A DNA stretch of 64,000 nucleotides, taken from an uncultured Mycoplasmatota bacterium (GTDB lineage: Bacteria; Bacillota_I; Bacilli_A; RF39; UBA660). The stretch spans positions 8,660-72,659 of the forward strand of contig CAOJYR010000003.1 in NCBI GenBank assembly GCA_948465965.1. Direction: 5' to 3'. Each line of letters starts with the position of its first letter. The first letter of the stretch is position 1. Of this stretch, positions 30,988 through 55,917 are shown piece by piece. Below the pieces are notes generated by a model. It made no database searches and was not told the origin of the DNA. It saw only the letters and a list, made by a program, of their open reading frames with translations. Both the position numbers and the translations under genes were made by a program.

Positions 30988-33078
30988 TTATGACTTTTTA
31001 TCGGTAGTAATTTTATAATTATTTAAATTTATAGTAACTGTTCCTGTATTTATAGTTAGATAATAATTTATTGATAATCTGTTGAGCCTTTCTATAATTT
31101 CTTTTCTTGGGTGGTTAAATTTATTATCTTTTCCAGCTGATATTAAAGCAATCTTAGGATTTATTTTTCTTAAGAATTCCTCACCACTACTCGTTATTGA
31201 ACCATGATGTCCTATTTTTAGTATGTCTATTTCTTCTAACTCATATTTATCCATAATACTTTGCTCACTTTTAACACTTGCATCTGCCATGAATAGCATT
31301 TTTAAATCAGCATAAGTTACATAGTATATTGAACTACTATCATTTTCATCACCTAAATCAGTATTTATTTGTAAAAAGTTAAATCTACCCACTTGAAAGG
31401 TGGTATTTTCCTTTGCGATAGAAATATCTTTTGCTTGTTTTATAATTTGTTTTTCTAAATTATTTATACCTCCTTCATTAATATATACTTTTTCTATTTG
31501 GAAATTTTCTAGCAAAGTTATAGCTTCTTTTGCGTGATCTGCATCACCATGTGTTAAAAGAAGATAATCAACCTTTTTAATCCCTAAGCTTTTCAAAAGT
31601 GGTATAGTTGTAGTTTTTACTATTGATGATATATCCTTTGTTTGTTGCCAAGTTTCTTTTTTGAAGGTCATTTTACCACCTGTATCAATTATTGCTGTTT
31701 CATTGTTTGAATGAAGTAAAAAGGAGTCCCCCTGTCCTACATCTATCATTTTTATATAATTTCTGTTATCAATCAAGGGAAATAAATAATGACCAAGTAA
31801 TAGTACCAGTAATGGTACTATATAACTTTTCTTTTTTATTTTTATTCCCTTAAGAAATATAATAATGAGAATGTAGTAGATAAAATATAGACGTATATTC
31901 TCTTTAGGGAAAATAAATTTTAAGGTATTTACTTTATCTAAAAGAATGGAGCTATATTCCAACACTGAAGTGAAGAAATTATAGATTGGTTCCAATATTG
32001 GAATAATATATGTCATTAAAGATAAGGGAAAGATGACAACACTAATAAAGGGAACATAAAACAAGTTATAGATAATACTTAGTATATTTAATTGATAAAA
32101 ATTAAATAAGGTTATAGGTATACTAGTTATGAAGGACAACGTTGAAGTTGTGAACAGCTTCATTAGATAATGTTTATAATTATTTATAAACTCTCCCATC
32201 ATTAATAAAGTGAGACTAATGGTGAAAGAATACCAACACGCTACATCATAAATATAGAATGGGTTTAATAAAAGGGCTAGGTCTAATGTTATAAGAAAGA
32301 TATTTGTATTTTTTATATATAAATAATATATTTTATTTATGGCAAATAATAAAAAGAATAATACTCCTCTTAAGATAGAGGCTGATAGTCCTGTTAACAA
32401 CAAGTATAGTATTAAAACTATGCTTGTTATAAAATAACTTTTTTCTTCTTTTATCTTTAATTTCTTTAGTATTTTTAATAGAATGTTTCCAAGTAGGTTT
32501 ATATGCATTCCACTTATTGCGAATAAATGGCTAATTCCATTATTTTGATATGTAGAGATTATTGTGGTAGTTAGATATGATTTATCTCCTAAGATAAAGG
32601 TATATAAATATGGATTGTTATTTAGTCTATTTATAATTTTTTGTTTTATAAGGTAATAAATATTTTTGTTGGAAGATATTTTTTTAATATTAGCAATAGA
32701 TACTTGATAATAGATCTTTTTTCTTTCTAAATATTTTTTATAATTAAAAATATTTTTAGTCCCAGGAGGGTCTATCTTAGAGAAAACTCCTGTTATTTCT
32801 ACTTTGTCTCCTAGAAAAAAGGTTTCTTTATATTCCTTTAATTCCTCTTCTTTCTTAAAATAATATGTTGCGAGAAATTTTTCTTTTCCACGTAGAGTTA
32901 ATTCAAGCTTATTTCCATCTATGTATTGGTTTTGTATAGTAGCTTCTGTCCTTGTAGTAGAATCAGTATATTTACTTGGTAGATTTAAATTGATTCTTAT
33001 TAGTGATAAAAGTAAAATAAACAAGAATACCATTACATATAATTTATCACAAAGTAAGGCGGTCCTTAATCTTATCAA
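30988..33078 (-). CDS. comEC: DNA internalisation competence protein ComEC/Rec2
   Basis: Polytopic competence domain followed by a C-terminal metallo-beta-lactamase domain (LLLTHGDADH...GHHGS). It follows comEA. Confidence 0.85.
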   Translation of the reverse strand: MIRLRTALLCDKLYVMVFLFILLLSLIRINLNLPSKYTDSTTRTEATIQNQYIDGNKLELTLRGKEKFLATYYFKKEEELKEYKETFFLGDKVEITGVFSKIDPPGTKNIFNYKKYLERKKIYYQVSIANIKKISSNKNIYYLIKQKIINRLNNNPYLYTFILGDKSYLTTTIISTYQNNGISHLFAISGMHINLLGNILLKILKKLKIKEEKSYFITSIVLILYLLLTGLSASILRGVLFFLLFAINKIYYLYIKNTNIFLITLDLALLLNPFYIYDVACWYSFTISLTLLMMGEFINNYKHYLMKLFTTSTLSFITSIPITLFNFYQLNILSIIYNLFYVPFISVVIFPLSLMTYIIPILEPIYNFFTSVLEYSSILLDKVNTLKFIFPKENIRLYFIYYILIIIFLKGIKIKKKSYIVPLLVLLLGHYLFPLIDNRNYIKMIDVGQGDSFLLHSNNETAIIDTGGKMTFKKETWQQTKDISSIVKTTTIPLLKSLGIKKVDYLLLTHGDADHAKEAITLLENFQIEKVYINEGGINNLEKQIIKQAKDISIAKENTTFQVGRFNFLQINTDLGDENDSSSIYYVTYADLKMLFMADASVKSEQSIMDKYELEEIDILKIGHHGSITSSGEEFLRKINPKIALISAGKDNKFNHPRKEIIERLNRLSINYYLTINTGTVTINLNNYKITTDKKS

Positions 33079-33745
33079 AAATGGAATCTCCTATCCCTTT
33101 CACATTTTTTAACTCATCAATCGTTTTAAAACCGCCATTGGAATTACGATAAGAAATTATATCATTAGCTTTAGCTTCTCCTACTCCACTTAGCGTCATT
33201 AACTCTTCAACTGTAGCATTATTTAGTGATATTTTGGAAGTAGAAGAAGTATTTTTATCACTATTATCGCTATCAATACAAGCATCATTCGTTAAGGAAT
33301 TACTATCAGGCTTTTTACATTGTTCATTAAGATATATCTCCAGCTCTTTTGTTTCTTTAAATTTTCTAATCTCATAATTACTATAAATTATTATAACCAT
33401 CTCATCAGTTATCTTTTTACTTAAATTAATAACTGTCGTATTGGCATTCTCAGTTAGTCCCCCAGCCTGATTAATCACATCTATTATACGAGAATCCTTT
33501 TTTAGTGTATATATTCCTGGATTATTTATTTCTCCTTTAATGTCAACTATATATTCTTCTTTTTCTTTGGATTCACTTTTTTGCTTTGGTTCTTCTTTTT
33601 TAGAAAGCAGCATCTCTTTTTTATCAGTCTTTGTGTTTTTATTCTTAGAAAATGTTATAATCACAAAGGATGAAATACTGCTTATCAATAATAAAATAGT
33701 TATACAAATTATGATTTGTTTTCTATAACGATATCTAAAAGTAAT
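33047..33745 (-). CDS. comEA: Competence protein ComEA (SLBB domain plus tandem helix-hairpin-helix DNA-binding domain). The start is probably a non-canonical AUU codon 57 nt upstream of the ORF-track TTG.
   Basis: C-terminal LSGVGEAKANDIISYRNSNGGFKTIDELKNVKGIGDSIFDKIK is the HhH domain. A perfect AGGAGGTG SD lies 7 nt before an in-frame ATT. The extension gives the expected signal anchor (RYRYRKQ followed by a TM helix). There is no SD before the annotated TTG. Confidence 0.75.
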   Translation of the reverse strand: MTFRYRYRKQIIICITILLLISSISSFVIITFSKNKNTKTDKKEMLLSKKEEPKQKSESKEKEEYIVDIKGEINNPGIYTLKKDSRIIDVINQAGGLTENANTTVINLSKKITDEMVIIIYSNYEIRKFKETKELEIYLNEQCKKPDSNSLTNDACIDSDNSDKNTSSTSKISLNNATVEELMTLSGVGEAKANDIISYRNSNGGFKTIDELKNVKGIGDSIFDKIKDRLTL

Positions 33746-43256: not shown

Positions 43257-44402
43257 TTATTTTCTTTTTGTTTGTGAATCTTTTCTTATCCCATTTTCTA
43301 CACTTACTCTTTGTACCAAAGTTAAAGCGGCAATTAAACAGATCGTAAAACTTCCTCCATAACTCATAAATGGTAATGGTACTCCTGTCATTGGCATCAT
43401 TCCGAAAAGTCCCATTAGATTGACTGCTATATGTAAGAATATATATACTGCTACTCCATAGCAAATAGTTGCTCCCCTATTTGTAGAGCTATTTTTTCCA
43501 ATCATTAAAATTCGATATAACAAGAACATATAAAGTAAGATAATTCCTATAGCTAATATTACCCCTAACTCTTCCACGATTATAGCAAAGATAAAATCTG
43601 TATATGGTTCTGGAAGATATAAATATTTTTGGGTCGAATTTCCAAGTCCTACACCAGTTAAGCCTCCATTATTAATAGCTATATAACCATTACATACCTG
43701 ATTTCCGGTTGATAATAATTTACTACATGGATTAGTAAAATCAAAACGTTCTAATTGTCTTTCTAAGAGTAGGCCTTTTCCTGAACTCATTAAAACAATT
43801 GAAGCAAAACCGATTAGCCCTACTATTCCGAAAATTGTTTTTGATTTTATTTCCTTGTTTATTGGTGATGCTAGAAACACCACACCAACGATTACAGTAT
43901 AAATTATTGTTGTTCCAAGGTCTGGTTGTAAAAATATTAAAAGAGCAACACTACCACATACTGCTAGAGGAAATAGGCTCTTCACGTATGTATTTAACTT
44001 TTTTATATTTACTTCATAATATCTCGCTAACCATACTATTGTTATCACTTTGGCAAACTCACTTGGCTGAATGCTTATAGGTCCTAAGTCATACCAAGAA
44101 ATAGCCTGATTTTTTGATTGCCCTATTATTAAAAGACATAATAAACTGACAATAATGATTAATAATAGTCCCCAAGAAAACATCCCATATGCTTTTGTTG
44201 TGAATTTAATCATTATTAATGAAAATACAAACCCTATCACTAAGAATATGGCTTGCTTGATAAAATAATTATAAGGGCTCACTGCATGTGACATATAAGC
44301 TGTTACATTAGAAGCAGAAAACACCATAATTAGTCCAATTATAAAGAGTAATATAGATACTAATAGTAAAGGTTTATCAATATATTTAATAATTTTTTTC
44401 AA
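43257..44402 (-). CDS. ftsW: SEDS-family peptidoglycan glycosyltransferase (FtsW/RodA/SpoVE)
   Basis: 10-TM protein with the conserved SEDS C-terminal region (GTTIIYTVIVG..., PLPFMSYGGS). Confidence 0.85.
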   Translation of the reverse strand: MKKIIKYIDKPLLLVSILLFIIGLIMVFSASNVTAYMSHAVSPYNYFIKQAIFLVIGFVFSLIMIKFTTKAYGMFSWGLLLIIIVSLLCLLIIGQSKNQAISWYDLGPISIQPSEFAKVITIVWLARYYEVNIKKLNTYVKSLFPLAVCGSVALLIFLQPDLGTTIIYTVIVGVVFLASPINKEIKSKTIFGIVGLIGFASIVLMSSGKGLLLERQLERFDFTNPCSKLLSTGNQVCNGYIAINNGGLTGVGLGNSTQKYLYLPEPYTDFIFAIIVEELGVILAIGIILLYMFLLYRILMIGKNSSTNRGATICYGVAVYIFLHIAVNLMGLFGMMPMTGVPLPFMSYGGSFTICLIAALTLVQRVSVENGIRKDSQTKRK

Positions 44403-44879: not shown

Positions 44880-45428
44880 ATGTTAAAAACAAAAGATATA
44901 TTAGATGAAAAAGACAAGCGTTTAAGGACTATTAGTAAGGAAGTAGAATTTCCTTTAACTAAAGAAGATAAAGAGTTAATTCATACTATGATTAATTACT
45001 TACATGATTCTCAAATTGATGAGTTGGCAGAAAAATATGATTTGAGACCAGGAATGGGACTTTCAGCCATTCAATTAGGTGTTGCGAAAAGATACTTTGT
45101 TGTTGTTAATGAAATTGATGAGGGCGAATTTGAAACTTATGTGTTAATTAACCCTAAAATGATCAGTAGTTCTGTTGAAAAGATTTATGTAGAAATGGGC
45201 GAAGGTTGCTTAAGTGTTAATCGTCCAGTTGATGGTATTGTTCCAAGATATGCTAGATGTACAATGGAGGCATATGACATGGAGGGCAGAAAGATTCATG
45301 TTAGAGCGCGTGAAGAGTTAGCTATTTGCTTTCAACATGAACTTGATCATTTAAATGGAATCTTATTTACAGATCATATAGATAAAAAGGATCCTTTTAA
45401 AGATAAAGACCAGATGAGGCCCATCTAG
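44880..45428 (+). CDS. def: Peptide deformylase
   Basis: The conserved motifs GxGxAAxQ (GMGLSAIQLG), EGCLS and QHExDH (HELDHLNG) are all present. Confidence 0.9.
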   Translation: MLKTKDILDEKDKRLRTISKEVEFPLTKEDKELIHTMINYLHDSQIDELAEKYDLRPGMGLSAIQLGVAKRYFVVVNEIDEGEFETYVLINPKMISSSVEKIYVEMGEGCLSVNRPVDGIVPRYARCTMEAYDMEGRKIHVRAREELAICFQHELDHLNGILFTDHIDKKDPFKDKDQMRPI

Positions 45429-45446
45429 TCTTTTTAATTTATTAAT
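45399..45446. repeat. Copy 1 of a ~48-60 bp direct repeat, covering the def 3' end plus its terminator hairpin AGACCAGATG-AGGCC-CATCTAGTCT
   Basis: It reappears at 48602..48649 with one mismatch. The flanking similarity decays over about 12 more bp upstream. Confidence 0.8.
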
Positions 45447-45454
45447 TTTACAAT

Positions 45455-46930
45455 TTACTCTTTAATCTTTTTTTCTTTTTTATTATAGATAAAATAACTT
45501 ATTATTGAAACTATTACTACTATCAATATCATAGCAATAATTATTATAACCGAATTAGTTTCAGGATTTTTTATAATATTGTTTATAATTCCATCGTTAT
45601 TTGAATCATCATTCGTAATATGGTATTTAGTAACTGAATATTTCATATTTTCGTCATAAAATTGGGTTTGAAATGTAGCTTGACAGGTTCGATATAATTT
45701 TACTGGAGTATTTAAAGCAATTGCTATTACTTTATCATTTTCTTTGTAAAAGATTGCACGTCTTTGAACATTTTCAAATCCATTAATATTTCCTACAGTG
45801 TAAAATATATCTAAATTATTCTTTTTACTATCAGTCATATTTTCTGTATACTTATGAATTGATGAATTATAAATCATAGTTTCGTTAGTAGAATCTAGTG
45901 TATATAAGTAAACTTCATTATCAATATAATCTAGGTCTGAGGCTAGTGTATTTATATTCTTTTCAACTTTACCATCTTTGTTAATAAAAATTGTACTACT
46001 TCCTGATGCAATATATCCATTATTAACCTCAATAATTTTGTTTATACTCTCATAATTTGTACTGCCATTTTTTGAATATCCACTATATTTAACGTAATAA
46101 TCATAGCTAATTTTTGTTTTACTTGAATCTATATATTTAAAATCCTTATCAAATTTTACAACACTTAATGCATAATCATATTTATCTTCCGATGCGTATC
46201 CGTTATTTTGTGTATCACTATATTTATAGACAACCAAGCAAATAATATTATCATCTTTTGTTTTGTTGATTGCTATGATTCTTGCTTCATGATAAAAGGG
46301 ATGTGTACAAGCACTTATATTTGTATTTAAAACGTTTGTCAACAAATCATTCCCATTTAGATAGCTAACAAAATTACCTTTTTTATCTATTTTAGCAATG
46401 ATTTTTTGATTGACATAACCAATGTCAACCCCACTGTTATTGTAGTTGGATTGGGCATATACTCGCTGTTTGCTATATGGAAATAGTATACCATCAGATA
46501 ATTCTATAATATTTTCTGTATAAGCTGTAGTTACATTAGAATTACTTGAATCTTTTAGATAATCCTTTTGCCATACTATATTTCCATTAAAGTCATATTT
46601 TGTAACATTTGAAGGATATGAATGCCATATTAATAACCCATCGTCTAATGCTTGTATCCTTGTTCCAGTTATTTTGTCCTTTTGCCATACTATATTTCCA
46701 TTAAAATCATATTTTGTAATGCTTGATGCTATATCTGCATTAGAACCCTCTACTTGCATTACGACAAAACCATCTTTTTGCTTTATTATTTGTGTGTCTG
46801 TAGAATCATAAATATTTAGTTCTTTACTCCACTCCTTTTCTGCCTTTGCTTCTACTTTTATGGTAGATATTATCAAAAACGCTGATGCTATTAATACTAT
46901 AATTGCTAATCCTCTTATTTTCTTATTCAT
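45455..46930 (-). CDS. Class B sortase substrate. It has a signal peptide, PQQ-like beta-propeller repeats (KYDFNGNIVWQKD twice) and a C-terminal NPETN sorting signal followed by a TM helix and a KKEKK tail.
   Basis: C-terminus reads …IIKNPETNSVIIIIAMILIVVIVSIISYFIYNKKEKKIKE. An N-terminal signal peptide is present. It is a paralogue of the 49667..51133 gene. Confidence 0.65.
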   Translation of the reverse strand: MNKKIRGLAIIVLIASAFLIISTIKVEAKAEKEWSKELNIYDSTDTQIIKQKDGFVVMQVEGSNADIASSITKYDFNGNIVWQKDKITGTRIQALDDGLLIWHSYPSNVTKYDFNGNIVWQKDYLKDSSNSNVTTAYTENIIELSDGILFPYSKQRVYAQSNYNNSGVDIGYVNQKIIAKIDKKGNFVSYLNGNDLLTNVLNTNISACTHPFYHEARIIAINKTKDDNIICLVVYKYSDTQNNGYASEDKYDYALSVVKFDKDFKYIDSSKTKISYDYYVKYSGYSKNGSTNYESINKIIEVNNGYIASGSSTIFINKDGKVEKNINTLASDLDYIDNEVYLYTLDSTNETMIYNSSIHKYTENMTDSKKNNLDIFYTVGNINGFENVQRRAIFYKENDKVIAIALNTPVKLYRTCQATFQTQFYDENMKYSVTKYHITNDDSNNDGIINNIIKNPETNSVIIIIAMILIVVIVSIISYFIYNKKEKKIKE

Positions 46931-46959
46931 AACCTACTCCTTATTGTATATTTATTGTA

Positions 46960-46989
46960 ATTATACCCCCCCCCCCACGTTTTTGTCAA
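46960..46989 (-). promoter_or_regulatory. Promoter of the surface-protein gene. It is consensus TTGACA-18nt-TATAAT with an 11-nt poly-G tract (poly-C on the plus strand, 46966..46976) filling the spacer. A putative phase-variation switch.
   Basis: The minus strand reads TTGACAAAAACGTGGGGGGGGGGGTATAAT, then 26 nt, then AAGGAG, then ATG. The plus-strand copy of the hexamer (TTGTCA) may also serve as the -35 of the divergent GT gene. Confidence 0.6.
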
Positions 46990-47044
46990 TTCTTTATTTT
47001 TTTCTTTTTATATGATATATTTTGATTAATTTAAGAGGTGAATT

Positions 47045-48574
47045 ATGAAATTAATTAAATTTAAAAATGCATTAACTTATACATTTTATATAACATTTGC
47101 AATAACCTTTACTTATTTATTTGTTTGCACTTTTATATATAAGGTTTCTTATAGTTATAGTTTAAATATGTTTATTTGCTTTATTATTGGAATATTTATA
47201 TTATTATTGTGGTATTTTATTTATAAAGTTATTAATAAATTTTATGACAGACTATCTAGTAAACAACAATTTTTGTTGTTGTTGTTTACTTTTATATTTT
47301 TCTGCTTTCTTATACTAACAATTTTGATTTGGCTGAAGCTAACACCAGATTGGGATTATCGTATAATATATGAACAGGCAAAAAGCTATGCTCTTTATGG
47401 GGATAGAACACACACTACCACTTCTCCTTCTTATTTTCAATACTATAATAATAACATTGGTTTATTTTTAATATTAGCGGGAGTTTTTAAGGTATGTTCT
47501 TTTATAGGAATTAAAGACTTTCTTACAGTGGCGACCATATTAAATGCTCTATTGGTTGGTTTTAGTATCTTTCTTTTATACCTTTGTATTAAGAAATTAT
47601 CAAATAAAAAAAGTGCTTTTTTTTCATTAATAGTAAGCTTATTTTTTATTCCTTTATTTACTTACATTCCTATGTTTTATACTGATACATTTTCATTACC
47701 TTTTGTTATGCTACTATTTTATTTATATTTATCTATTGATAGCAAAAAATTATTATCTAAAAAAAATATTATATTGTTTGCTTCTATTTTATTTGTAGCC
47801 TTTTTAGGAAGTAAAATAAAGATGACTGTTCTTGTTGTTTTTATTGCTTGTTTTATTCATTTTATGTTTACTAGCAAACTTAAATATACATTACTTTTGT
47901 TATTAATTATTACTGCTTTTTTTTCATTTTCATCCGTTCTTTGGGAAAAACTAGTATATGAAAATAAAAGCTTTTCATTTATTCAAAATGAGTATGGGCA
48001 CGTTCCATCGTCTCACTTTTTAATGATGGGTGTGCAAAGAAAGGATGACGATTTGGCTGGAATAAACTGTTTAGGGTGCTATAATCATGATGATTTTAAT
48101 CAAACTTTATTTTATAAGAATAGCAAAGAAGGCGCTAAGGCTGATATTAAGGAATATATTACTAGAGTAAGAGAGTATGGATTTAGCGGATATTTTATTT
48201 ATTTAAGTAAAAAGGCAGTTAATGCTTGGGGAGAAGGAAGTTATTTTAGTAATGTTGTTTATAAATTAAACCTTGCTGAAAATAATATAGCTAAAAAACT
48301 TATTATAGGAGAAGATAATAAAATTATTTTATATTTTCAACAAGGCGTTAGTGAAGCCATGTTGCTTATATTTGGTTGCTATAGTTTTATTATGTTTTTT
48401 AAAAGAAAAAAAATGGACACATCTACAATTATTCTAATCTCTATTTATGGGATGTTTGTTTTACTCTTATTTTGGGAAAATCGATCTCGATATTTATATA
48501 ATTACATACCTATATTTATTACCTTAATAACTTTATTTTACTATAATATAAATAAATTTAAATTAAAAAAATAA
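47045..48574 (+). CDS. Putative GT-C superfamily membrane glycosyltransferase (PMT_2/ArnT-like), copy A
   Basis: About 12 TM helices. The first extracytoplasmic loop carries PDWDYRIIYEQA, an acidic DxD/E motif typical of GT-C enzymes. 509 aa. AAGAGGTG SD. About 75% identical to the 51256..52788 gene. Confidence 0.45.
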   Translation: MKLIKFKNALTYTFYITFAITFTYLFVCTFIYKVSYSYSLNMFICFIIGIFILLLWYFIYKVINKFYDRLSSKQQFLLLLFTFIFFCFLILTILIWLKLTPDWDYRIIYEQAKSYALYGDRTHTTTSPSYFQYYNNNIGLFLILAGVFKVCSFIGIKDFLTVATILNALLVGFSIFLLYLCIKKLSNKKSAFFSLIVSLFFIPLFTYIPMFYTDTFSLPFVMLLFYLYLSIDSKKLLSKKNIILFASILFVAFLGSKIKMTVLVVFIACFIHFMFTSKLKYTLLLLLIITAFFSFSSVLWEKLVYENKSFSFIQNEYGHVPSSHFLMMGVQRKDDDLAGINCLGCYNHDDFNQTLFYKNSKEGAKADIKEYITRVREYGFSGYFIYLSKKAVNAWGEGSYFSNVVYKLNLAENNIAKKLIIGEDNKIILYFQQGVSEAMLLIFGCYSFIMFFKRKKMDTSTIILISIYGMFVLLLFWENRSRYLYNYIPIFITLITLFYYNINKFKLKK

Positions 48575-48601
48575 AGGAATAAGATTGATAAAGGAAAGTT
48601 C

Positions 48602-48649
48602 AAAGATAAAGACCAGATGATGCCCATCTAGTCTTTTTAATTTATTAAT
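48602..48649. repeat. Copy 2 of the def-3'-end/terminator repeat. It acts as a bidirectional terminator between GT copy A and the sortase gene.
   Basis: aaagataaagaccagatgaTgcccatctagtctttttaatttattaat. It retains a degenerate def C-terminal reading frame (KDKDQMMPI*). Confidence 0.8.
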
Positions 48650-49629
48650 GCTGCGTGAACAACTAACCGACCTGTATTATTATCATTACAAGTTGATAGT
48701 GTTAATATATTAGTAGTATTTGAGATATCATAATTAAAGTCATATATTGTTCTGTTTTTTAAAGTCTTTATAAATTCTTTATAGTAATACTCTGAAGTAA
48801 ATTCATTTGCTAAATAATATGTTTCTGTTTGAACTTCATATATGGAAAAAATATTCCAATTATAAATTTTACTGCTTGTCTTTAAGTTGATTAAATGACT
48901 ACTATTTTCTTGCCATTCTTTTGTAAATAAATTGGAAATTGTTCCAAACATTGTTTTGTTTAATAGATGATGTCCATAAATAATACTATTTTTCTTTAAG
49001 TTTTCTAAATCATTTCTATAATCACCAAAAATGCTACCATTTTTATTATATGTTTTATTAAAAGAATGGTTTAAATAATACTCATTGTCAGTAGATTGAA
49101 CTATTGGGTAATTTATATTTGTTTTATCTACTCTAATCCACCCTACTATATCACTGTTTTCCTTTTTTAAATCCAATATATTTATTTCTTCAATAGGCAT
49201 ATTTTGATATTTTTCATATCCTTTTTGCTTTTCATTGTTGTTATATAAATCTTGGTCTTTGCTTTCTTTTTCTGTATTTTCTGTACTATTCTTATCCTTT
49301 TCTTCTGCTGTACCAACATTACTTTCAGGCGCTAATTTAGTTACCCTAAGTGGGGATGTGGGAATCACAAAGTTAATTATACATACAATTGTCACAACTG
49401 CTACTGCTACTATTAAGGTTATTTCTGTCTTGTTTTTTAGTGTTTCTATTACCTTATCTAGCTTAGAAAATTTTCTCTTTCCAAAAAGAAATGGGATAAA
49501 TATAATAATATTATATACTATATCCCAGCATAGATTAATGAAATAAGTAAATAAACTAGTAACAAAGGTTACATGTAAGTCAATTAAAAAGATTAATATT
49601 TTCTTTAAAGTATTTAACATTTTCATCAT
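48637..49629 (-). CDS. srtB: Class B sortase (SrtB) with an extended N-terminal membrane region
   Basis: Catalytic TLSTC motif (ILTLSTCNDNNTGRLVVHAALI), an upstream His (IYGHHL) and a conserved Arg in RLVVHA. About 330 aa. Confidence 0.7.
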   Translation of the reverse strand: MMKMLNTLKKILIFLIDLHVTFVTSLFTYFINLCWDIVYNIIIFIPFLFGKRKFSKLDKVIETLKNKTEITLIVAVAVVTIVCIINFVIPTSPLRVTKLAPESNVGTAEEKDKNSTENTEKESKDQDLYNNNEKQKGYEKYQNMPIEEINILDLKKENSDIVGWIRVDKTNINYPIVQSTDNEYYLNHSFNKTYNKNGSIFGDYRNDLENLKKNSIIYGHHLLNKTMFGTISNLFTKEWQENSSHLINLKTSSKIYNWNIFSIYEVQTETYYLANEFTSEYYYKEFIKTLKNRTIYDFNYDISNTTNILTLSTCNDNNTGRLVVHAALIN

Positions 49630-49666: not shown

Positions 49667-51133
49667 TTACTTTTCTTTTTTATGCTTTTTATTATAAAAA
49701 TAATAACTAAGTGCTGATACTCCAACTATTATTACTACAAACACAATAATCATTATAATAGAATCTGTTTCAGGATTTTTGATTATGTTTTCTATTATCC
49801 CATTATTACTTTCTTCTTCGTCTGTAATACGATACTTTGTAACTGAATATTTCATATCTTTATCATAGAATTGAGTTTGCAAAACAGAACTAGATCCACG
49901 TACTAATTTTACAGGTGTATTTAAAACAATCACATATACGTCTTCACCAGATTTATAAAATATTGCCCTTCTATATAATGATCCAAATCCTTTGGTATCT
50001 GCTGCTATATAAAATGTATCTAATTTATTACTCCTTTGTAGCTGCATATTTGATGTATATTTATGAATTGCAGAATTATAAACTAGTGTCTCATTTGTAG
50101 GCTCTATTGCATATAAATATATATTGTCATCAAGATAATGCATATCTGTTGATACCGTATTTATGCTTTTTTGCATTTTTCCTTCTTTATCTATATATAC
50201 TGTGGAGGCGCCCGAGGCTACATATCCGTCATTGATTTCTATAATATTATTGAATCCACCACTACTGTTATAGCTACTATATAATGCAAAATGAGCTTCG
50301 TCGATATCTTTCATTACTGTTTGTTGGTATTTCATATTCTTATCATACTTCACTATACCTAATGCATACTTGTAGTCATATGCAGGGTTTCCAAAAGATA
50401 ACCAACTATTACCTACATTATCGCTATAGGCAAATAATGTCAAAAATATTATGTCACCATCTTTTGATATGTTATACCCTGCAATTTTTGCATATCTGGT
50501 ATATGTACTTAAATTATCTGTCTTTGGCATAAATTTAAAAAACTGTGAATAATCAATTGTGTAAGAGGAGATAGAGCCATTTTTATATATTTTTAATGCG
50601 GCCATACTATGTGGATTTCCATTTCCATTATTTCCATTTCTATACATTATAGAGGATTGCTCCCACTTTATTATATATCCATCATCAACTTCTACGATAT
50701 TATCTGCAGTTACTCTTACTTCCTGTTTTCCATTCAATCCGCCATCAAAATCAGTTTCTTTGATCCATACAGCATTGCCATCTTTATCATATTTTGCAAT
50801 TCTAAATTTTCCTATATTGCCATTTCTCCATACAAGGAACCCATCTGATACTCCCTGTATCCTATTACCAAAGTTATTTTCTTTTTCCCATATTTTATTT
50901 CCATTAAAATCATACTTTGTAATGCGATTCTTTAAGTCTCTTACTGATCCTTCTATTTGGAATATTATAATACCATCCTCTACTTTAACTATTTCAGTTT
51001 CAGTAGAATCATAAATATCTAACTCCTTATTCCAAACCTTTTCTGCCTTTGCTTCTACCTTAATCGTTGGAATTAATAAAATTGCTAGAATTATTAATAG
51101 TATTAATTTTTTTGTTATTGCTTTATTCTTCAT
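49667..51133 (-). CDS. Class B sortase substrate, paralogue B. It has a signal peptide, PQQ-like beta-propeller repeats and a C-terminal NPETD sorting signal with a TM helix and a KKHKKEK tail. Probably co-transcribed with srtB.
   Basis: C-terminus reads …IIKNPETDSIIMIIVFVVIIVGVSALSYYFYNKKHKKEK. Its N-terminal 40 aa and C-terminal ~90 aa are nearly identical to the 45455..46930 protein, while the central region is diverged. Confidence 0.65.
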   Translation of the reverse strand: MKNKAITKKLILLIILAILLIPTIKVEAKAEKVWNKELDIYDSTETEIVKVEDGIIIFQIEGSVRDLKNRITKYDFNGNKIWEKENNFGNRIQGVSDGFLVWRNGNIGKFRIAKYDKDGNAVWIKETDFDGGLNGKQEVRVTADNIVEVDDGYIIKWEQSSIMYRNGNNGNGNPHSMAALKIYKNGSISSYTIDYSQFFKFMPKTDNLSTYTRYAKIAGYNISKDGDIIFLTLFAYSDNVGNSWLSFGNPAYDYKYALGIVKYDKNMKYQQTVMKDIDEAHFALYSSYNSSGGFNNIIEINDGYVASGASTVYIDKEGKMQKSINTVSTDMHYLDDNIYLYAIEPTNETLVYNSAIHKYTSNMQLQRSNKLDTFYIAADTKGFGSLYRRAIFYKSGEDVYVIVLNTPVKLVRGSSSVLQTQFYDKDMKYSVTKYRITDEEESNNGIIENIIKNPETDSIIMIIVFVVIIVGVSALSYYFYNKKHKKEK

Positions 51134-51255
51134 AATAAATGCTCCTTATCGTCTATTATATATCTACATTATCCTCTTTTAAAATCAATTTGTCAATTCT
51201 TTAATTTTATTTTTTTTTGTGATATATTGTGATTAGCATTTGGGAGTGATGTAAT

Positions 51256-52788
51256 TTGAGATTAGAGAAACTTAAAGGTATATTGATCTATATATTTTAC
51301 ATAGTATTTGCTATTACTTTTAGTTATATATTTGTAACTACATTTATATATAATGTTTCTTATAATTATAGTGTAAATAAGTTTACTTGTTTTATAGTTG
51401 GAATTTTTATATTTATAGTATGGTATTTTATTTATAAAGTTATTAATCAGTATTATGATAAATTATCTCCTAAGCAGGAATTTCTCTTATTATTATCTAC
51501 TTTTATTATCATTTCTTTAATTATATTAATGATTTTAACCACACTAAAATTAACTCCTAATTGGGATTATCATATAATATATGAGCAAGCAAAGAGTTAT
51601 GTTCTATATGGTGATAGGTATCATACGACAACATCCCCTTCCTACTTTCAATATTATAATAACAATATTGGTTTATTTTTGATATTGGTAATAATTTTTA
51701 AATTTTGTCACTTTATTGGTATTTCAGATTTTATCACTGTTATGACCATTATAAATGCCATCTTGGTAGGTATTAGTATATTACTTCTCTATCTTTGTGT
51801 TAGAAAATTACTCGATAAAAAGAAGGCATTTTTTTCATTAGTTATAAGCTTATTTTTTGTTCCATTATTTACATATATTCCTATGTTTTATACTGATACA
51901 TTTTCGTTGCCATTTGTGATGTTAGTACTTTATTTATACTTATGTATTGATAAAGACAAAATTTTTTCTAAAAGGAATATTGTATTATTCATCTTTCTTC
52001 TAATAATAGCCTTTTTAGGTAGTAGGATAAAGATGACCATTTTGGTTATTTTTATCGCCTGCATTATTCACTTTATTTTTACTAATAAAATTAAGTATAT
52101 ATTTTGCCTATTATTAATAACCTGTTTGTTTTTTTCTATCTCTTCATTCTTCTGGAAAACCTTAATATATGAAAATAAGGAATTTGATTTTATACAAAAT
52201 GATTATGGTAATGTACCTCTTACTCATTATTTAATGATGGGTGTTCAAAGAAAAGATGATGACTTATTAGATGTTAACTGCTTAGGTTGCTATAACCGCA
52301 ATGATTTTGCTTTAACGTTTTCTTATTATAATAGTAAAGAAGCATTTAATTATGATATGCAGGAATATTTGAGAAGAGTAAAAGAATATGGTATACTAGG
52401 TTACTTTAACTATCTTTCAAGAAAGGCAGTTAATGCCTGGGGTGAAGGAAGTTATTTTAGTGATTTCGTGTATCGTTATAACTACAATTCAACTTATAAT
52501 AATAGGTTTAGAAAACTAGTTATTGGTGACTCTAATAAAACTTTATTATATTTTGAACAAGGCGTTAGTGAAGCTACGTTACTTATATTTGGTTGTTATG
52601 GTTTTATTTTATTAGTTAGAAGAAAGAAAATAGATAAATCTACAATTATACCAATTTCCATATATGGAATGTTTATTGTACTTTTATTCTGGGAAAATCG
52701 ATCTAGATACTTATATAACTACATACCTATTTTTATTATATTAATCACATTATTTTATCATAATATTATTGAAAAAAAGTCAGTATGA
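51256..52788 (+). CDS. Putative GT-C superfamily membrane glycosyltransferase (PMT_2/ArnT-like), copy B, with a TTG start
   Basis: Same motif set as copy A (TPNWDYHIIYEQA). GGGAGTG SD before the TTG. Confidence 0.45.
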   Translation: MRLEKLKGILIYIFYIVFAITFSYIFVTTFIYNVSYNYSVNKFTCFIVGIFIFIVWYFIYKVINQYYDKLSPKQEFLLLLSTFIIISLIILMILTTLKLTPNWDYHIIYEQAKSYVLYGDRYHTTTSPSYFQYYNNNIGLFLILVIIFKFCHFIGISDFITVMTIINAILVGISILLLYLCVRKLLDKKKAFFSLVISLFFVPLFTYIPMFYTDTFSLPFVMLVLYLYLCIDKDKIFSKRNIVLFIFLLIIAFLGSRIKMTILVIFIACIIHFIFTNKIKYIFCLLLITCLFFSISSFFWKTLIYENKEFDFIQNDYGNVPLTHYLMMGVQRKDDDLLDVNCLGCYNRNDFALTFSYYNSKEAFNYDMQEYLRRVKEYGILGYFNYLSRKAVNAWGEGSYFSDFVYRYNYNSTYNNRFRKLVIGDSNKTLLYFEQGVSEATLLIFGCYGFILLVRRKKIDKSTIIPISIYGMFIVLLFWENRSRYLYNYIPIFIILITLFYHNIIEKKSV

Positions 52789-52808
52789 TAATCATGCTGA
52801 CTTTTTAT
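52771..52808. terminator. Bidirectional terminator between GT copy B and smc
   Basis: Near-perfect palindrome GTCAGTATGAT/ATCATGCTGAC flanked by A- and T-runs. Confidence 0.65.
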
Positions 52809-55759
52809 ACAATTTCTTTTCTTTCATCAAGTTTTACACTAACAAGTTTTGATACACCCGATTCTTGCATTGTAATACCATATAGAGTGTTTGCATATTC
52901 CATCGTTTTTTTCTTATGTGTAATGATTAAAAATTGCGTTTTATTTTTATAATGATCTAAATATTTTCCAAACTGGGAAACATTTGCTTCATCTAGGGCA
53001 GCTTCCACTTCATCAAATAGGCAGAATGGTACCGCTCTTACATTAAGAATTGCGAATAATAAACTGATTGCTGTTAGGGTTTTTTCTCCACCCGATAATA
53101 GTGATATTGTTGTTAATTTTTTACCTGGAGGGGATGCTACGATCTCAACTCCTGTTGTCAGTAAGTTGTCTGGATCGGTTAGTTTTAAATCAGAATTACC
53201 TCCACCAAATAACTCCTTAAAAACTGCTTTGAATTCTTTTTGGACTTTCTCAAATGTTATTTTAAATTCCTCTTTCATAACATCATCCATCTCATTCATA
53301 ATTTCTAATAGTGTATCTTCTGCTTTTAGAAGGTCTTCTCTTTGATTCGTTAGAAAGACATATCTTGCATTTACCTTTTCATATTCCTCAATAGCGGCTA
53401 AGTTTACCATACCAATTCGCTTGATATTTGCTCTATAGGTATTTACTTTTATTCTAGCTTCATCTGGATCAATATCTAATTTGTAATCTCTTTTGGCTTT
53501 CTCAAAAGTTAGCTCATATTCTTCACCCAAAGTATTTAGCATAGTATCAATCTTAACATCTAATCTATTTATTACTATTTCTTTTTCACGCGATGTTTTC
53601 TCTAAATTACGTAAAGTAGAGTTTTGTAATTTTGAAGAAGCTGTGCGTTTTTCTATTTTTTCTTTTAAGGCATTAATTTCTTCACTTAAATTAGAAATTT
53701 TATTAATAATAGATTCCTTTAAAGTATTTTTTTCATGATACAACTTAATTAGTTCTTGTTCTTTTTTATCTAATGAGTTGCTATTTATAGCCTCTAGACT
53801 CTCGTAATCTCTAGTTAGCTTATCGAGTCTTTCTTTTTGGTGCTTTAGCTCAGTATTTTTATTATCATACTTTTCTTTTAATGTAACCTTCCTTTTAGAA
53901 ATTAGAAACTCTTCTTCTTCTAATTTAGTAATTTCTACTCTAACGTCTGCTAGCTCATTATCAATTTCTAATTGTTCTTGTTTTAAAAGTTCTATTTTCT
54001 CTGTTATATGTTTTAAATCTTGTTTTAGGCTAATAATACTTTTTGTGTGATACGTTGATCCTCCGGACATTGAACCACCGACGTTAATCACATCACCATC
54101 TAATGTTACAATTTTATAACGACCTTTGATTAAGTGACTTAGCCTTGTTGCGCTATCAATATCAGGTGACACTACTACTGTTCCTAATTGATTTTCTATA
54201 ATATGTTTATATTTTTGATCATATGTTACTAAATCACTTAATACTCCTATAAAGTCACTACTCGATTTCATTATACTTAAAGTATTTGCGTCTACATATC
54301 TTTGTTTAATTATAGAAAGAGGAAAGAAAGTAGCTCTACCTAGATGGTTATCTTTTAAATAATTAATTGCTTTTTTGGCAGATAATTCATCTGTTGTAAT
54401 GATAAAGTTTTTATTCGATGCTATAGCAATATTTAATGCCTTCATAAATCTATCCTCGGTAGATAAAATATTACCAATCGTATTATGAATTCCTGTTAGG
54501 TTTGTTGACTTTAAAATGTTTCTAACGCTATTCGGTAAATCTCCTCCTGCTTCTATGTCTCTTTGTAAAGATTCCATTTTATGTTTTAGAGAGATAAGCT
54601 CTTTTTCATGTGAGGAGTAATCATTGTTTAACATATTCTTTTTGACTTTTAATTTATCAATTTTTTCTTCAACTTCTGTAGAATTTTTATCTTCCCTTTT
54701 AGCATTATCAACAATCACTTCTAACTCTTCTTTTAAAAGTTTTATACTTCCATCAAGTAATGATTTTTCCTCTAAACTCTTTCTTATTTCCTCTTTTAAT
54801 TCCTGTTCTTCTTTTGTTGTTTTACTTCGTTCTTCTAATAAGTTTCTTTCACCATTTATTCTTTCTACTTCAGCAGTGATATCTAATAACTTCTTATTTA
54901 ATTCTGCTTTTTCTTTTTCTTTCTTTTCTAAACTGTTATTGTCGTTTATCTCTTCTGCATCATTTTTAGAAGTTTCTGCTCCAATATTTAAAATCTCTTT
55001 ATCTAGTTTTTCTTTTTCTTTCGTTGCAGTTTCCAATTCGATATTAGCATTTTCAATATCATATGCTAACAAAGCAACTTCATAGGTATCTAAGCCTCTT
55101 TTGTTTTCTAAATAAACTTTTGCCTTTTCACTTTGCTCTTTTAGTGGCCCTACTTGAAGCTCTAACTCAGAAATAATATCATTTACGCGATCTATATTAT
55201 TATGTGTTCTATCCAGTTTTCTTAAAGCTTCTCCTTTTCTTTTTTTGTATTTCAATATTCCGGCTGCTTCTTCAAATATTACTCGCCTATCACTTGCTGA
55301 GTCACTAAGAATCTTTTCAACTTCTCCTTGGGAAATAATATTAAAGGATTCTTTCCCCATTCCAGAATCAATTAAAAGATTAGTTAAGTCTTTTAAACGA
55401 CATTTTTCGCCATTTAGGTAGTATTCATTTTCACCACTTCTATATACTCGTCTTTTAATAGAGATTTCTGTATAAGGAACATTTAAAAAGTGATCACTAT
55501 TATCAAATACTAATTCTACTGATGCGACATTTAAAGGATTTCTACTCTTACTTCCGGAAAATATTACATCACTCATAGAACCTTCTCCACGAAGGGATTT
55601 TACGGATTGTTCTCCCAATACCCATCTAACGGCATCAACAACATTGCTTTTACCTGAACCATTTGGTCCGACTATACAAGTCGTTTTATCGTCTAATTTG
55701 ATATTTAATTTATCCGCAAAAGATTTAAAACCACTTGCCTCAATTTCTTTTAAGTACAT
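52805..55759 (-). CDS. smc: Chromosome segregation protein SMC (984 aa, shorter coiled-coil arms than usual)
   Basis: N-terminal Walker A GPNGSGKSN, hinge GRATFFPLSIIK, C-terminal signature LSGGEKTLTAISLLFA and Walker B LFDEVEAALD. Start trimmed to MYLKEIEASGFKSF with a GGTGAAGAG SD. Confidence 0.85.
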   Translation of the reverse strand: MYLKEIEASGFKSFADKLNIKLDDKTTCIVGPNGSGKSNVVDAVRWVLGEQSVKSLRGEGSMSDVIFSGSKSRNPLNVASVELVFDNSDHFLNVPYTEISIKRRVYRSGENEYYLNGEKCRLKDLTNLLIDSGMGKESFNIISQGEVEKILSDSASDRRVIFEEAAGILKYKKRKGEALRKLDRTHNNIDRVNDIISELELQVGPLKEQSEKAKVYLENKRGLDTYEVALLAYDIENANIELETATKEKEKLDKEILNIGAETSKNDAEEINDNNSLEKKEKEKAELNKKLLDITAEVERINGERNLLEERSKTTKEEQELKEEIRKSLEEKSLLDGSIKLLKEELEVIVDNAKREDKNSTEVEEKIDKLKVKKNMLNNDYSSHEKELISLKHKMESLQRDIEAGGDLPNSVRNILKSTNLTGIHNTIGNILSTEDRFMKALNIAIASNKNFIITTDELSAKKAINYLKDNHLGRATFFPLSIIKQRYVDANTLSIMKSSSDFIGVLSDLVTYDQKYKHIIENQLGTVVVSPDIDSATRLSHLIKGRYKIVTLDGDVINVGGSMSGGSTYHTKSIISLKQDLKHITEKIELLKQEQLEIDNELADVRVEITKLEEEEFLISKRKVTLKEKYDNKNTELKHQKERLDKLTRDYESLEAINSNSLDKKEQELIKLYHEKNTLKESIINKISNLSEEINALKEKIEKRTASSKLQNSTLRNLEKTSREKEIVINRLDVKIDTMLNTLGEEYELTFEKAKRDYKLDIDPDEARIKVNTYRANIKRIGMVNLAAIEEYEKVNARYVFLTNQREDLLKAEDTLLEIMNEMDDVMKEEFKITFEKVQKEFKAVFKELFGGGNSDLKLTDPDNLLTTGVEIVASPPGKKLTTISLLSGGEKTLTAISLLFAILNVRAVPFCLFDEVEAALDEANVSQFGKYLDHYKNKTQFLIITHKKKTMEYANTLYGITMQESGVSKLVSVKLDERKEIV

Positions 55760-55917
55760 ACTCTTCACCATGTTAATTATACTATAAAATTCTTTTTCAA
55801 ACAACACTATCTTTTGATAGAAAAAGAAAAAAAGATATAAAATCCTCTACTATGTTATTGGTACCCTATTTTTTCTAAAATTATAGATATATAATTATAT
55901 ACTAGAATATAATCATT

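Follow-up and report, generated by a model that had tools for sequence, protein, structure and literature searches.

A near-identical 51-bp repeat of the def 3' end flanks a surface-protein and glycosyltransferase unit in an uncultured Mycoplasmatota bacterium: a probable duplicated def/srtB junction

The stretch of DNA analysed here, referred to below as the window, comprises 64,000 nucleotides (nt) from an uncultured Mycoplasmatota bacterium (NCBI GenBank assembly GCA_948465965.1, contig CAOJYR010000003.1, positions 8,660 to 72,659 of the forward strand). Our subject is a direct repeat that covers the 3' end of the peptide deformylase gene def and is found on both sides of a 3.15-kb unit. 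The only open reading frames (ORFs) between def and smc are those of a surface protein (SP1), a glycosyltransferase (GT1), the sortase gene srtB, a second surface protein (SP2) and a second glycosyltransferase (GT2), and the 3.15-kb unit encodes just SP1 and GT1. For further comparisons, SP1 and GT1 are named module 1, SP2 and GT2 module 2, and the two repeat copies T and T'. Nearly all long ORFs of the window are on the minus strand. The exceptions are def, GT1, GT2 and an ORF at 11172-13763, so that both glycosyltransferase genes are transcribed against the prevailing direction. The features of the locus are the following.

43257-44402, minus strand: ftsW.
44880-45428, plus strand: def, peptide deformylase (Pfam Pep_deformylase, E=2.5e-40).
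45396-45446: repeat copy 1 (T), with the def tail, a hairpin at 45405-45433, a T-rich tract and a possible srtB-like relic.
45455-46930, minus strand: SP1, surface protein of 491 amino acids (aa), without a Pfam or NCBIfam match.
46960-46989, minus strand: SP1 promoter, TTGACA-18-TATAAT, with a run of 11 C at 46966-46976 in the spacer.
47045-48574, plus strand: GT1, polytopic GT-C-like glycosyltransferase of 509 aa (weak PMT_2 match; TIGR03766 below threshold).
48575-48598: spacer of 24 nt between the GT1 stop and copy 2, lacking a counterpart after GT2 and any significant similarity to def; its right end is the novel junction J2.
48599-48649: repeat copy 2 (T'), with a def-tail remnant, a hairpin at 48608-48636 and the true srtB 3' end (stop codon 48637-48639).
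48637-49629, minus strand: srtB, class B sortase, whose stop and last three codons lie within copy 2.
49667-51133, minus strand: SP2, paralogous surface protein with an NPETDS motif, in an operon with srtB.
51256-52788, plus strand: GT2, paralogous glycosyltransferase.
52773-52807: hairpin between GT2 and smc, found by direct reading of the sequence.
52805-55807, minus strand: smc.

Direct reading of the two copies showed that 47 of 48 bases are the same between 45399-45446 and 48602-48649 (AAAGATAAAGACCAGATGAGGCCCATCTAGTCTTTTTAATTTATTAAT), the single mismatch being G45419 / T48622, just as the initial annotation of this DNA had described. A repeat search added three bases to the match, which then measures 51 nt and has two mismatches (45396-45446 and 48599-48649; 49/51, 96%; spacing 3203 bp). 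When up to three mismatches were allowed, exactly these two copies were found in the window, and none in 100 shuffles. The right end is abrupt: past ...TTATTAAT, copy 1 goes on with TTTACAATTT and copy 2 with GCTGCGTGAA. The left end is abrupt too, since beyond TT[T/C] the flanks over 30-40 nt upstream resemble each other no more than random segments of the window (p ~0.3 when anchored alignments were compared with those of 4000 random 40-mers; p ~0.07 in a diagonal test). The decaying similarity over about 12 bp further upstream, which the initial annotation had reported, is therefore not above chance, and an in-frame upstream remnant (KIDKGKF.. vs HIDKKDPF..) is weakly suggestive (p ~0.07, diagonal test).

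The repeat contains the last 10 codons of def and its stop, a hairpin that overlaps this stop and has A/T-rich tracts on each side, and a T-rich flank. The presence of the last def codons and of the hairpin in the repeat had been recognised before; the hairpin lies across the def stop and not behind it. Copy 1 translates as the def tail ...FKDKDQMRPI*, and copy 2 retains the previously noticed degenerate frame ...FKDKDQMMPI* as a non-coding remnant; the G-to-T change turns a conserved Arg codon into Met, as expected for a copy without a coding role. The T-rich flank of copy 2 includes the stop and the last three codons of srtB. In copy 1 the right flank is TTAATTTATTAAT, a stretch of 10-13 nt that matches the last three srtB codons plus stop and lies orphaned beside SP1. 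The presence of TTAATTTATTAAT in copy 1 would fit a duplication of a pre-existing def/srtB junction.

The window evidently comes from a metagenome-assembled genome, and as many assembly k-mers are longer than 48 bp, contigs of two strains could have been joined through the short shared repeat. An independent ENA contig (L081; sample ERZ14864794; 1731 bp; 99.8% identical, three single-nucleotide differences) is nevertheless unbroken between the GT1 3' end and the SP2 3' end, with copy 2 and srtB in between. Because this contig spans the second junction independently, the junction at copy 2 is no assembly artefact; moreover, T' has a loop substitution relative to T and a left flank of its own. 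We consider a chimeric assembly exceedingly improbable.

For comparison with related loci, a scan based on def was performed with one genome per species. It yielded 80 loci (L001-L080) of uncultured gut Bacilli ('Ca. Faecimonas' and relatives), in which Def is at most 90% identical to that of the window. The hairpin arms in the window are AAAGACCAGATG and CATCTAGTCTTT, with 5 nt between them (45405-45433 and 48608-48636), and the 3' arm holds the def stop codon. On the def strand the stem has 10-11 bp with one C/A mismatch; on the opposite strand this mismatch becomes a G-U pair and the stem is a perfect 12-bp one. Segments of 74 nt around the two copies fold on both strands, more strongly on the minus strand (-19.5/-16.4 kcal/mol) than on the plus strand (-13.4/-11.7 kcal/mol), and a U-rich tract is found 3' of the stem on both strands (plus TTTTTAATTTATT, minus TTTATCTTT). 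A simple terminator scanner picked up only part of copy 1, on the minus strand.

Twenty-nine related loci have the same stop-overlapping hairpin where def ends. In an alignment of 31 sequences (the 29 loci and both window copies), 97.8% of the cells are paired, compared with 30-51% when the partner is slid. In two stem pairs both partners have changed (G-C to A-U in eight sequences), although the stem is partly coding. The hairpin core evolves very slowly, 38 nt being identical in four of the loci (L022, L024, L029 and L062). This conservation in 29 loci with compensatory changes points to an ancestral terminator probably shared by def and whatever gene converges on it. The repeat has the structural features of a bidirectional intrinsic terminator, namely a stem-loop on both strands, U-tracts, and conservation with compensatory changes. 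Judged by its structure, copy 2 is a putative bidirectional terminator for GT1 and srtB. Among the def tails of L001-L080, different species groups have different hairpins and different Def C-termini (..DQMR[A/P]I*, ..EYRAI*, ..SMRAI*); as the stop and the last codons are embedded in the stem and the hairpin and the C-terminus vary together, the protein tail and the terminator appear to co-evolve. The hairpin between GT2 and smc (stem 52779-52788 / 52792-52801, GTCAGTATGA-TAA-TCATGCTGAC) is unrelated in sequence to the repeat. It is also a putative bidirectional terminator of the same stop-in-terminator design, with the GT2 stop inside it and the smc stop in its T-tract.

The idea that the repeat is a widespread terminator element was not borne out. 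In 1.38 Mb of related DNA, the repeat core (up to four mismatches) was found as a single copy in each of 18 loci, and only the window has two copies; a JGI metagenome scan for exact matches to the hairpin core with the CCC codon gave no hits. In none of the 80 related species does the species' own def tail recur. A dispersed terminator or REP-like element was rejected on these counts, and sites of the integron or Xer type were likewise rejected, on the basis of the repeat length, the lack of a recombinase and the lack of dispersed copies.

The gene order ftsW (minus), def (plus), smc (minus), pda (minus) is kept at all 80 loci, and the gap between def and smc, 5 bp at its shortest and 4.5 kb at its longest, contains unrelated cargo, which makes it a hotspot. 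This cargo includes a family of about 490 aa without a Pfam match, in one to three tandem copies (e.g. L010, L053, L013, L064), a DD-carboxypeptidase (L035) and other unrelated genes. Homologues of SP and GT were sought in the def-smc gap of the 80 species and none was found; srtB is present there only in L024. Together with three lineages obtained from a search for SrtB homologues (L086, L087 and L088/89), there are four independent lineages in which def is followed directly by a convergent srtB, 6-15 bp apart. Their SrtB proteins are 46% (L024), 58% (L086), 57% (L087) and 55% (L088/89) identical to that of the window. The junction in the four lineages, ..TATTAATGCTGCGTG.., is orthologous to the copy 2/srtB junction of the window, and L088 reads ...GTCTTTTTTTATTGAGTTTGTATTAATGCTGCGTGGAC. 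Both window copies and L086-88 share the Pro codon CCC, a derived state, where most relatives have GCC. The initial annotation had suggested checking whether def is followed directly by srtB in related genomes, and in these lineages it is. From the adjacency in four lineages with an orthologous junction, def and srtB are ancestral neighbours, and the position of SP1-GT1 between them is probably a derived one. A transposase of the UPF0236 family lies immediately beside the SP-SrtB-def cluster of one of these lineages (L086:234-1658).

As a structure of two direct repeats around a unit is formally symmetric, the opposite polarity has to be weighed as well. An ancestor with the order def-T-SP1-GT1-smc could have received the block of def tail/T', srtB, SP2 and GT2 from a conspecific donor that had the usual order def-T-srtB, in which case module 2 would be the newcomer. 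T' has TTC, as in L024 and L062, and T has TTT; moreover, the complete cassette in other species has the form GT | SP-SrtB, i.e. module 2 plus srtB. Such an ancestor has no parallel among the relatives, however, as def followed by SP-GT occurs in none of them and def-srtB in four. It would also have left SP1 with no cognate sortase nearby, and the srtB-type three codons plus stop beside SP1 in copy 1 are not predicted by it. We regard this polarity as decidedly improbable.

The relative age of the repeat and of the modules was assessed by aligning the two modules. Module 1 (~45447-48555) aligns with module 2 over its whole length, with nucleotide identities of 61-74% in the coding regions. GT1 and GT2 are 70%, and SP1 and SP2 44%, identical in amino acid sequence; synonymous divergence (dS) is ~1.2 in both gene pairs, and four-fold sites are ~41% identical (35/84 and 23/56). 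The promoter intergenic region is 60% identical between the modules, the longest exact shared run being 29 nt. By comparison, the repeat is ~2-4% diverged (one or two differences in 48-51 nt), and the chance of at least 47 matches in 48 at 75% identity is 1.7e-5. Either the repeat is much younger than the split of the modules, and hence than their paralogy, or else its copies have been homogenised. Besides itself, the nearest database relative of GT1 is 56% identical, so that GT2 (70%) is its closest known relative; the glycosyltransferase of the L083 lineage is 56-59% identical to GT1 and GT2 alike. On these comparisons, GT1 and GT2 are paralogues specific to this lineage, or else alleles of great age, and did not arise by recent copying. 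A recent in-situ tandem duplication of module 2, of the same age as the repeat, was excluded on account of the difference between the modules (61-74% nt, dS ~1.2) and the repeat (98%).

An old in-situ duplication is a different matter. The block of def tail/T, srtB, SP and GT could have been duplicated in tandem long ago, the first srtB later deleted, and the 51-bp copies homogenised by gene conversion and/or purifying selection. Such a history would yield precisely the observed gene order, together with the srtB relic with which copy 1 ends on the right, and would agree with GT1 and GT2 being mutually closest known relatives. The identical stretch is exactly the full putative bidirectional terminator, its hairpin core evolves very slowly between species (the 38 nt shared by L022, L024, L029 and L062), and the in-frame remnant upstream of copy 2 (p ~0.07) points weakly the same way. 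At dS ~1.2, however, a non-coding copy should differ at its unconstrained positions, namely in the loop, at the wobble sites and in the T-rich flank of 16 nt; the T-rich flank varies between species, yet 16 of its 16 nt are identical here. Furthermore, the 44 nt from the end of the GT1/GT2 homology (~48555) to T' have no counterpart after GT2, and three steps would be needed, namely the duplication, a precise loss of srtB, and recurrent gene conversion, for which only 51 bp of homology are available. We consider an old duplication unlikely.

With moderate confidence we propose instead that the 51-bp repeat is a duplicated junction, and that a diverged SP-GT unit entered the terminator junction of def and srtB through illegitimate or unequal recombination. 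In the ancestor, def (plus) and srtB (minus) would have converged on one bidirectional intrinsic terminator, with the def stop in the hairpin and the srtB stop in the T-rich flank. The 3.15-kb unit, consisting of SP1 and the divergently transcribed GT1, would then have been placed inside this junction, leaving the junction sequence on both sides. The incoming unit was presumably an already diverged paralogue or allele and no fresh copy of module 2. The joining may have taken place between two DNA molecules with different versions of the def-proximal island, without a transposase or integrase. Possible routes are a homology-anchored illegitimate integration of transformed DNA, a Campbell-type integration via the conserved terminator, or an unequal exchange between strains with divergent island alleles followed by the loss of one srtB. 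The extra terminator may have been kept because with it neither convergent pair (def/SP1 and GT1/srtB) has to share a stop signal with the other, and antisense read-through is prevented, and the non-coding copy 2 would afterwards have gained the Arg-to-Met change.

DNA uptake is conceivable, as genes for ComEC (Competence and Lactamase_B domains) and ComEA (SLBB and HHH_3 domains) are present at 30988-33688 of the window. Homology-anchored illegitimate integration is documented elsewhere (PMC3240628), as is transformation-driven unequal crossing-over giving repeat-bounded duplications (PMC3784515). No integrase, transposase or terminal inverted repeats were found in or next to the 3.15-kb unit, and a search for a mobile-element origin of GT1 gave no phage match and three plasmid matches only, all distant (at most 27% identity). 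A target-site duplication by a transposon (2-15 bp, with inverted repeats and a transposase) was rejected, as the repeat measures 48-51 bp, terminal inverted repeats are absent, and the unit consists of SP1 and GT1. An integrase-mediated island was also rejected: from def to smc there is no gene for a tyrosine or serine recombinase, and the site is not used recurrently in the 80 loci.

The initial annotation had taken module 1 for a derived, recently mobilised unit that was inserted or duplicated at the def terminator. The footprint of an insertion holds, and the derived position is in line with the four def-srtB lineages; a simultaneous in-situ duplication does not agree with the dS of ~1.2 and the amino acid identities of 70% and 44%, and for recent mobilisation the argument is the sequence identity of the repeat copies.

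Several points weigh against the proposed joining into a duplicated junction. The structure is found in one species and in two samples, both of which are 'occupied'; neither an empty-site allele nor a donor locus was found, and searches with GT1 and with SrtB revealed no close relative of this species in the collection beyond its own two samples. Two novel junctions (45446|45447 and 48598|48599) need explaining, and a single unequal crossover makes one. The 51-bp unit coincides with a complete putative terminator (A-tract, stem-loop and T-tract), so that selection or gene conversion could exaggerate its apparent youth. Finally, a similar T-flank, TTTTTTAATTATTAAC, occurs in L007, where the neighbouring gene is smc, which weakens the argument for an srtB relic.

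It is also conceivable that the repeat reflects integration at a specific site. If the 51 bp were an att-like site (attL/attR), the unit would be an integrase-less, cis-mobilisable cassette that targets the def 3' end. The direct repeats do correspond to the 3' end of a conserved housekeeping gene, which recalls genomic islands with a duplicated target-gene 3' end; an imperfect palindrome lies within the site, and the def-smc gap is a cargo hotspot over 80 species. Set against this are the absence of any integrase or recombinase in or near the unit or among the island ORFs, the count of 0/80 related species with a second def tail (the core being present once per locus elsewhere), and the plasmid matches of GT1, which are distant (at most 27% identity), with no phage match. 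On balance, site-specific integration of this kind seems very improbable. A related idea, which we hold to be highly doubtful, is that the def terminator, near-invariant over ~38 nt in many species of this clade of gut Bacilli, serves as a recombinase-independent integration address, or 'landing pad'. A small circular or linear SP-GT-T DNA could then be integrated at the def 3' end, and excised from it again, through RecA-type recombination over ~50 bp.

The proteins of the two modules were compared with known families. SP1 has a signal peptide, a C-terminal NPETNS sorting motif and a transmembrane anchor, and ends ...KNPETNSVIIIIAMILIVVIVSIISYFIYNKKEKKIKE; SP2 has a signal peptide and an NPETDS motif, and ends ...KNPETDSIIMII...KKHKKEK. 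In both proteins a hydrophobic segment and then a basic tail come after the sorting motif, as would be expected of sortase B substrates, so that both are putative substrates of this type. Exact-protein look-ups of def, SP1 and SP2 matched no record. The srtB product scores 165.5 with TIGR03064 (cutoff 153.75) and also matches Pfam Sortase. With a sortase above the equivalog cutoff and an adjacent, putatively NPxTx-type substrate, the locus qualifies as a predicted class B sortase locus. GT1 has a PMT_2 match below the cutoff (E=1.8e-4), and both GT1 and GT2 have a full-length, sub-threshold match to TIGR03766. The latter family is described as 'XrtG-associated glycosyltransferase' and is linked to protein-sorting systems; the precomputed Pfam family of GT1 and GT2 is PF27792. 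The pairing of a glycosyltransferase with a predicted sortase B substrate suggests glycosylation of the anchored protein.

The SP1 promoter is a perfect sigma-70-type TTGACA-18-TATAAT, in which the run of 11 C (poly-G on the coding strand), already pointed out in the initial annotation, fills most of the spacer and abuts the -10 element. This homopolymer suggests phase variation through spacer length. The SP2 promoter (51196..51168) reads TTGACA-17-GATAAT and is free of homopolymers. In another lineage, a homologous cassette of the form GT | SP(446 aa)-SrtB-second SP lies between holA and mgsA (L082:6863-12421, L083:6852-12421, L084, L085). Its second SP is split into ORFs of 65 aa and 389 aa, which may reflect a frameshift, pseudogene formation or a switch, and L082 has an additional 2-kb insertion with ABC_tran fragments beside the cassette. 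No duplicated tail of a flanking gene was found around the holA/mgsA cassette (L082, L083) or in L024.

If the proposed origin is right, the repeat would represent a step, dated and polarised, in the growth of a surface-protein island in an uncultured lineage of gut Bacilli, in which a sortase-less and probably phase-variable SP-GT unit was added beside an existing srtB-SP-GT cassette, in a hotspot between two core genes. The design principle would be that an insertion between convergent genes, together with duplication of their shared terminator, leaves all four transcription units insulated. The direct repeats also predict that module 1 could be deleted or excised by recombination, which would provide a second on/off layer above the homopolymer promoter. 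Should the highly doubtful landing-pad idea be true, the terminator of a housekeeping gene would be a portable address of phase-variable surface-protein cassettes, and this would explain the cargo hotspot between def and smc.

The locus can be compared with several known systems. Like sortase B cassettes with an NPxTx substrate and a GT-C-type glycosyltransferase, it has an srtB product above the TIGR03064 cutoff and the succession of NPETNS or NPETDS, transmembrane segment and basic tail, and the same GT | SP-SrtB cassette is found in another lineage. It differs from them in that module 1 lacks its own sortase, that the SP family is not covered by a Pfam or NCBIfam model, and that the glycosyltransferases are below the threshold for TIGR03766. 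With bidirectional intrinsic (Rho-independent) terminators between convergent genes, the repeat shares a G+C-containing stem-loop with an A-rich tract upstream and a T-rich tract downstream, the placement between convergent ORFs, and the conservation with compensatory changes in relatives. Unlike in such terminators, the stem here includes the last codons and the stop of def, and the C/A mismatch of the def strand is a G-U pair on the other.

Islands flanked by attL and attR, whether driven by an integrase or cis-mobilisable without one, have in common with this locus a repeat of about 50 bp from the 3' end of a conserved gene, which is left intact. Here, by contrast, there is no integrase, the unit measures only 3.15 kb, and the site is never reused with repeats in 80 species. 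The likeness to homology-facilitated illegitimate recombination and transformation-driven unequal crossing-over (PMC3240628; PMC3784515) lies in a diverged or foreign segment beside a conserved anchor, in novel junctions without long homology, in a short bounding repeat, and in the presence of ComEA and ComEC. The documented cases are mostly deletions or very large tandem duplications with repeats of insertion-sequence size, whereas here a 51-bp junction duplication is known from its end product. The current understanding of recombination and termination is unchanged by this fairly ordinary piece of genome history, which offers a clean example rather than a new principle: it is a new instance of a known event, the duplication of a junction and its terminator at an insertion in a core-gene hotspot, and no new kind of system.

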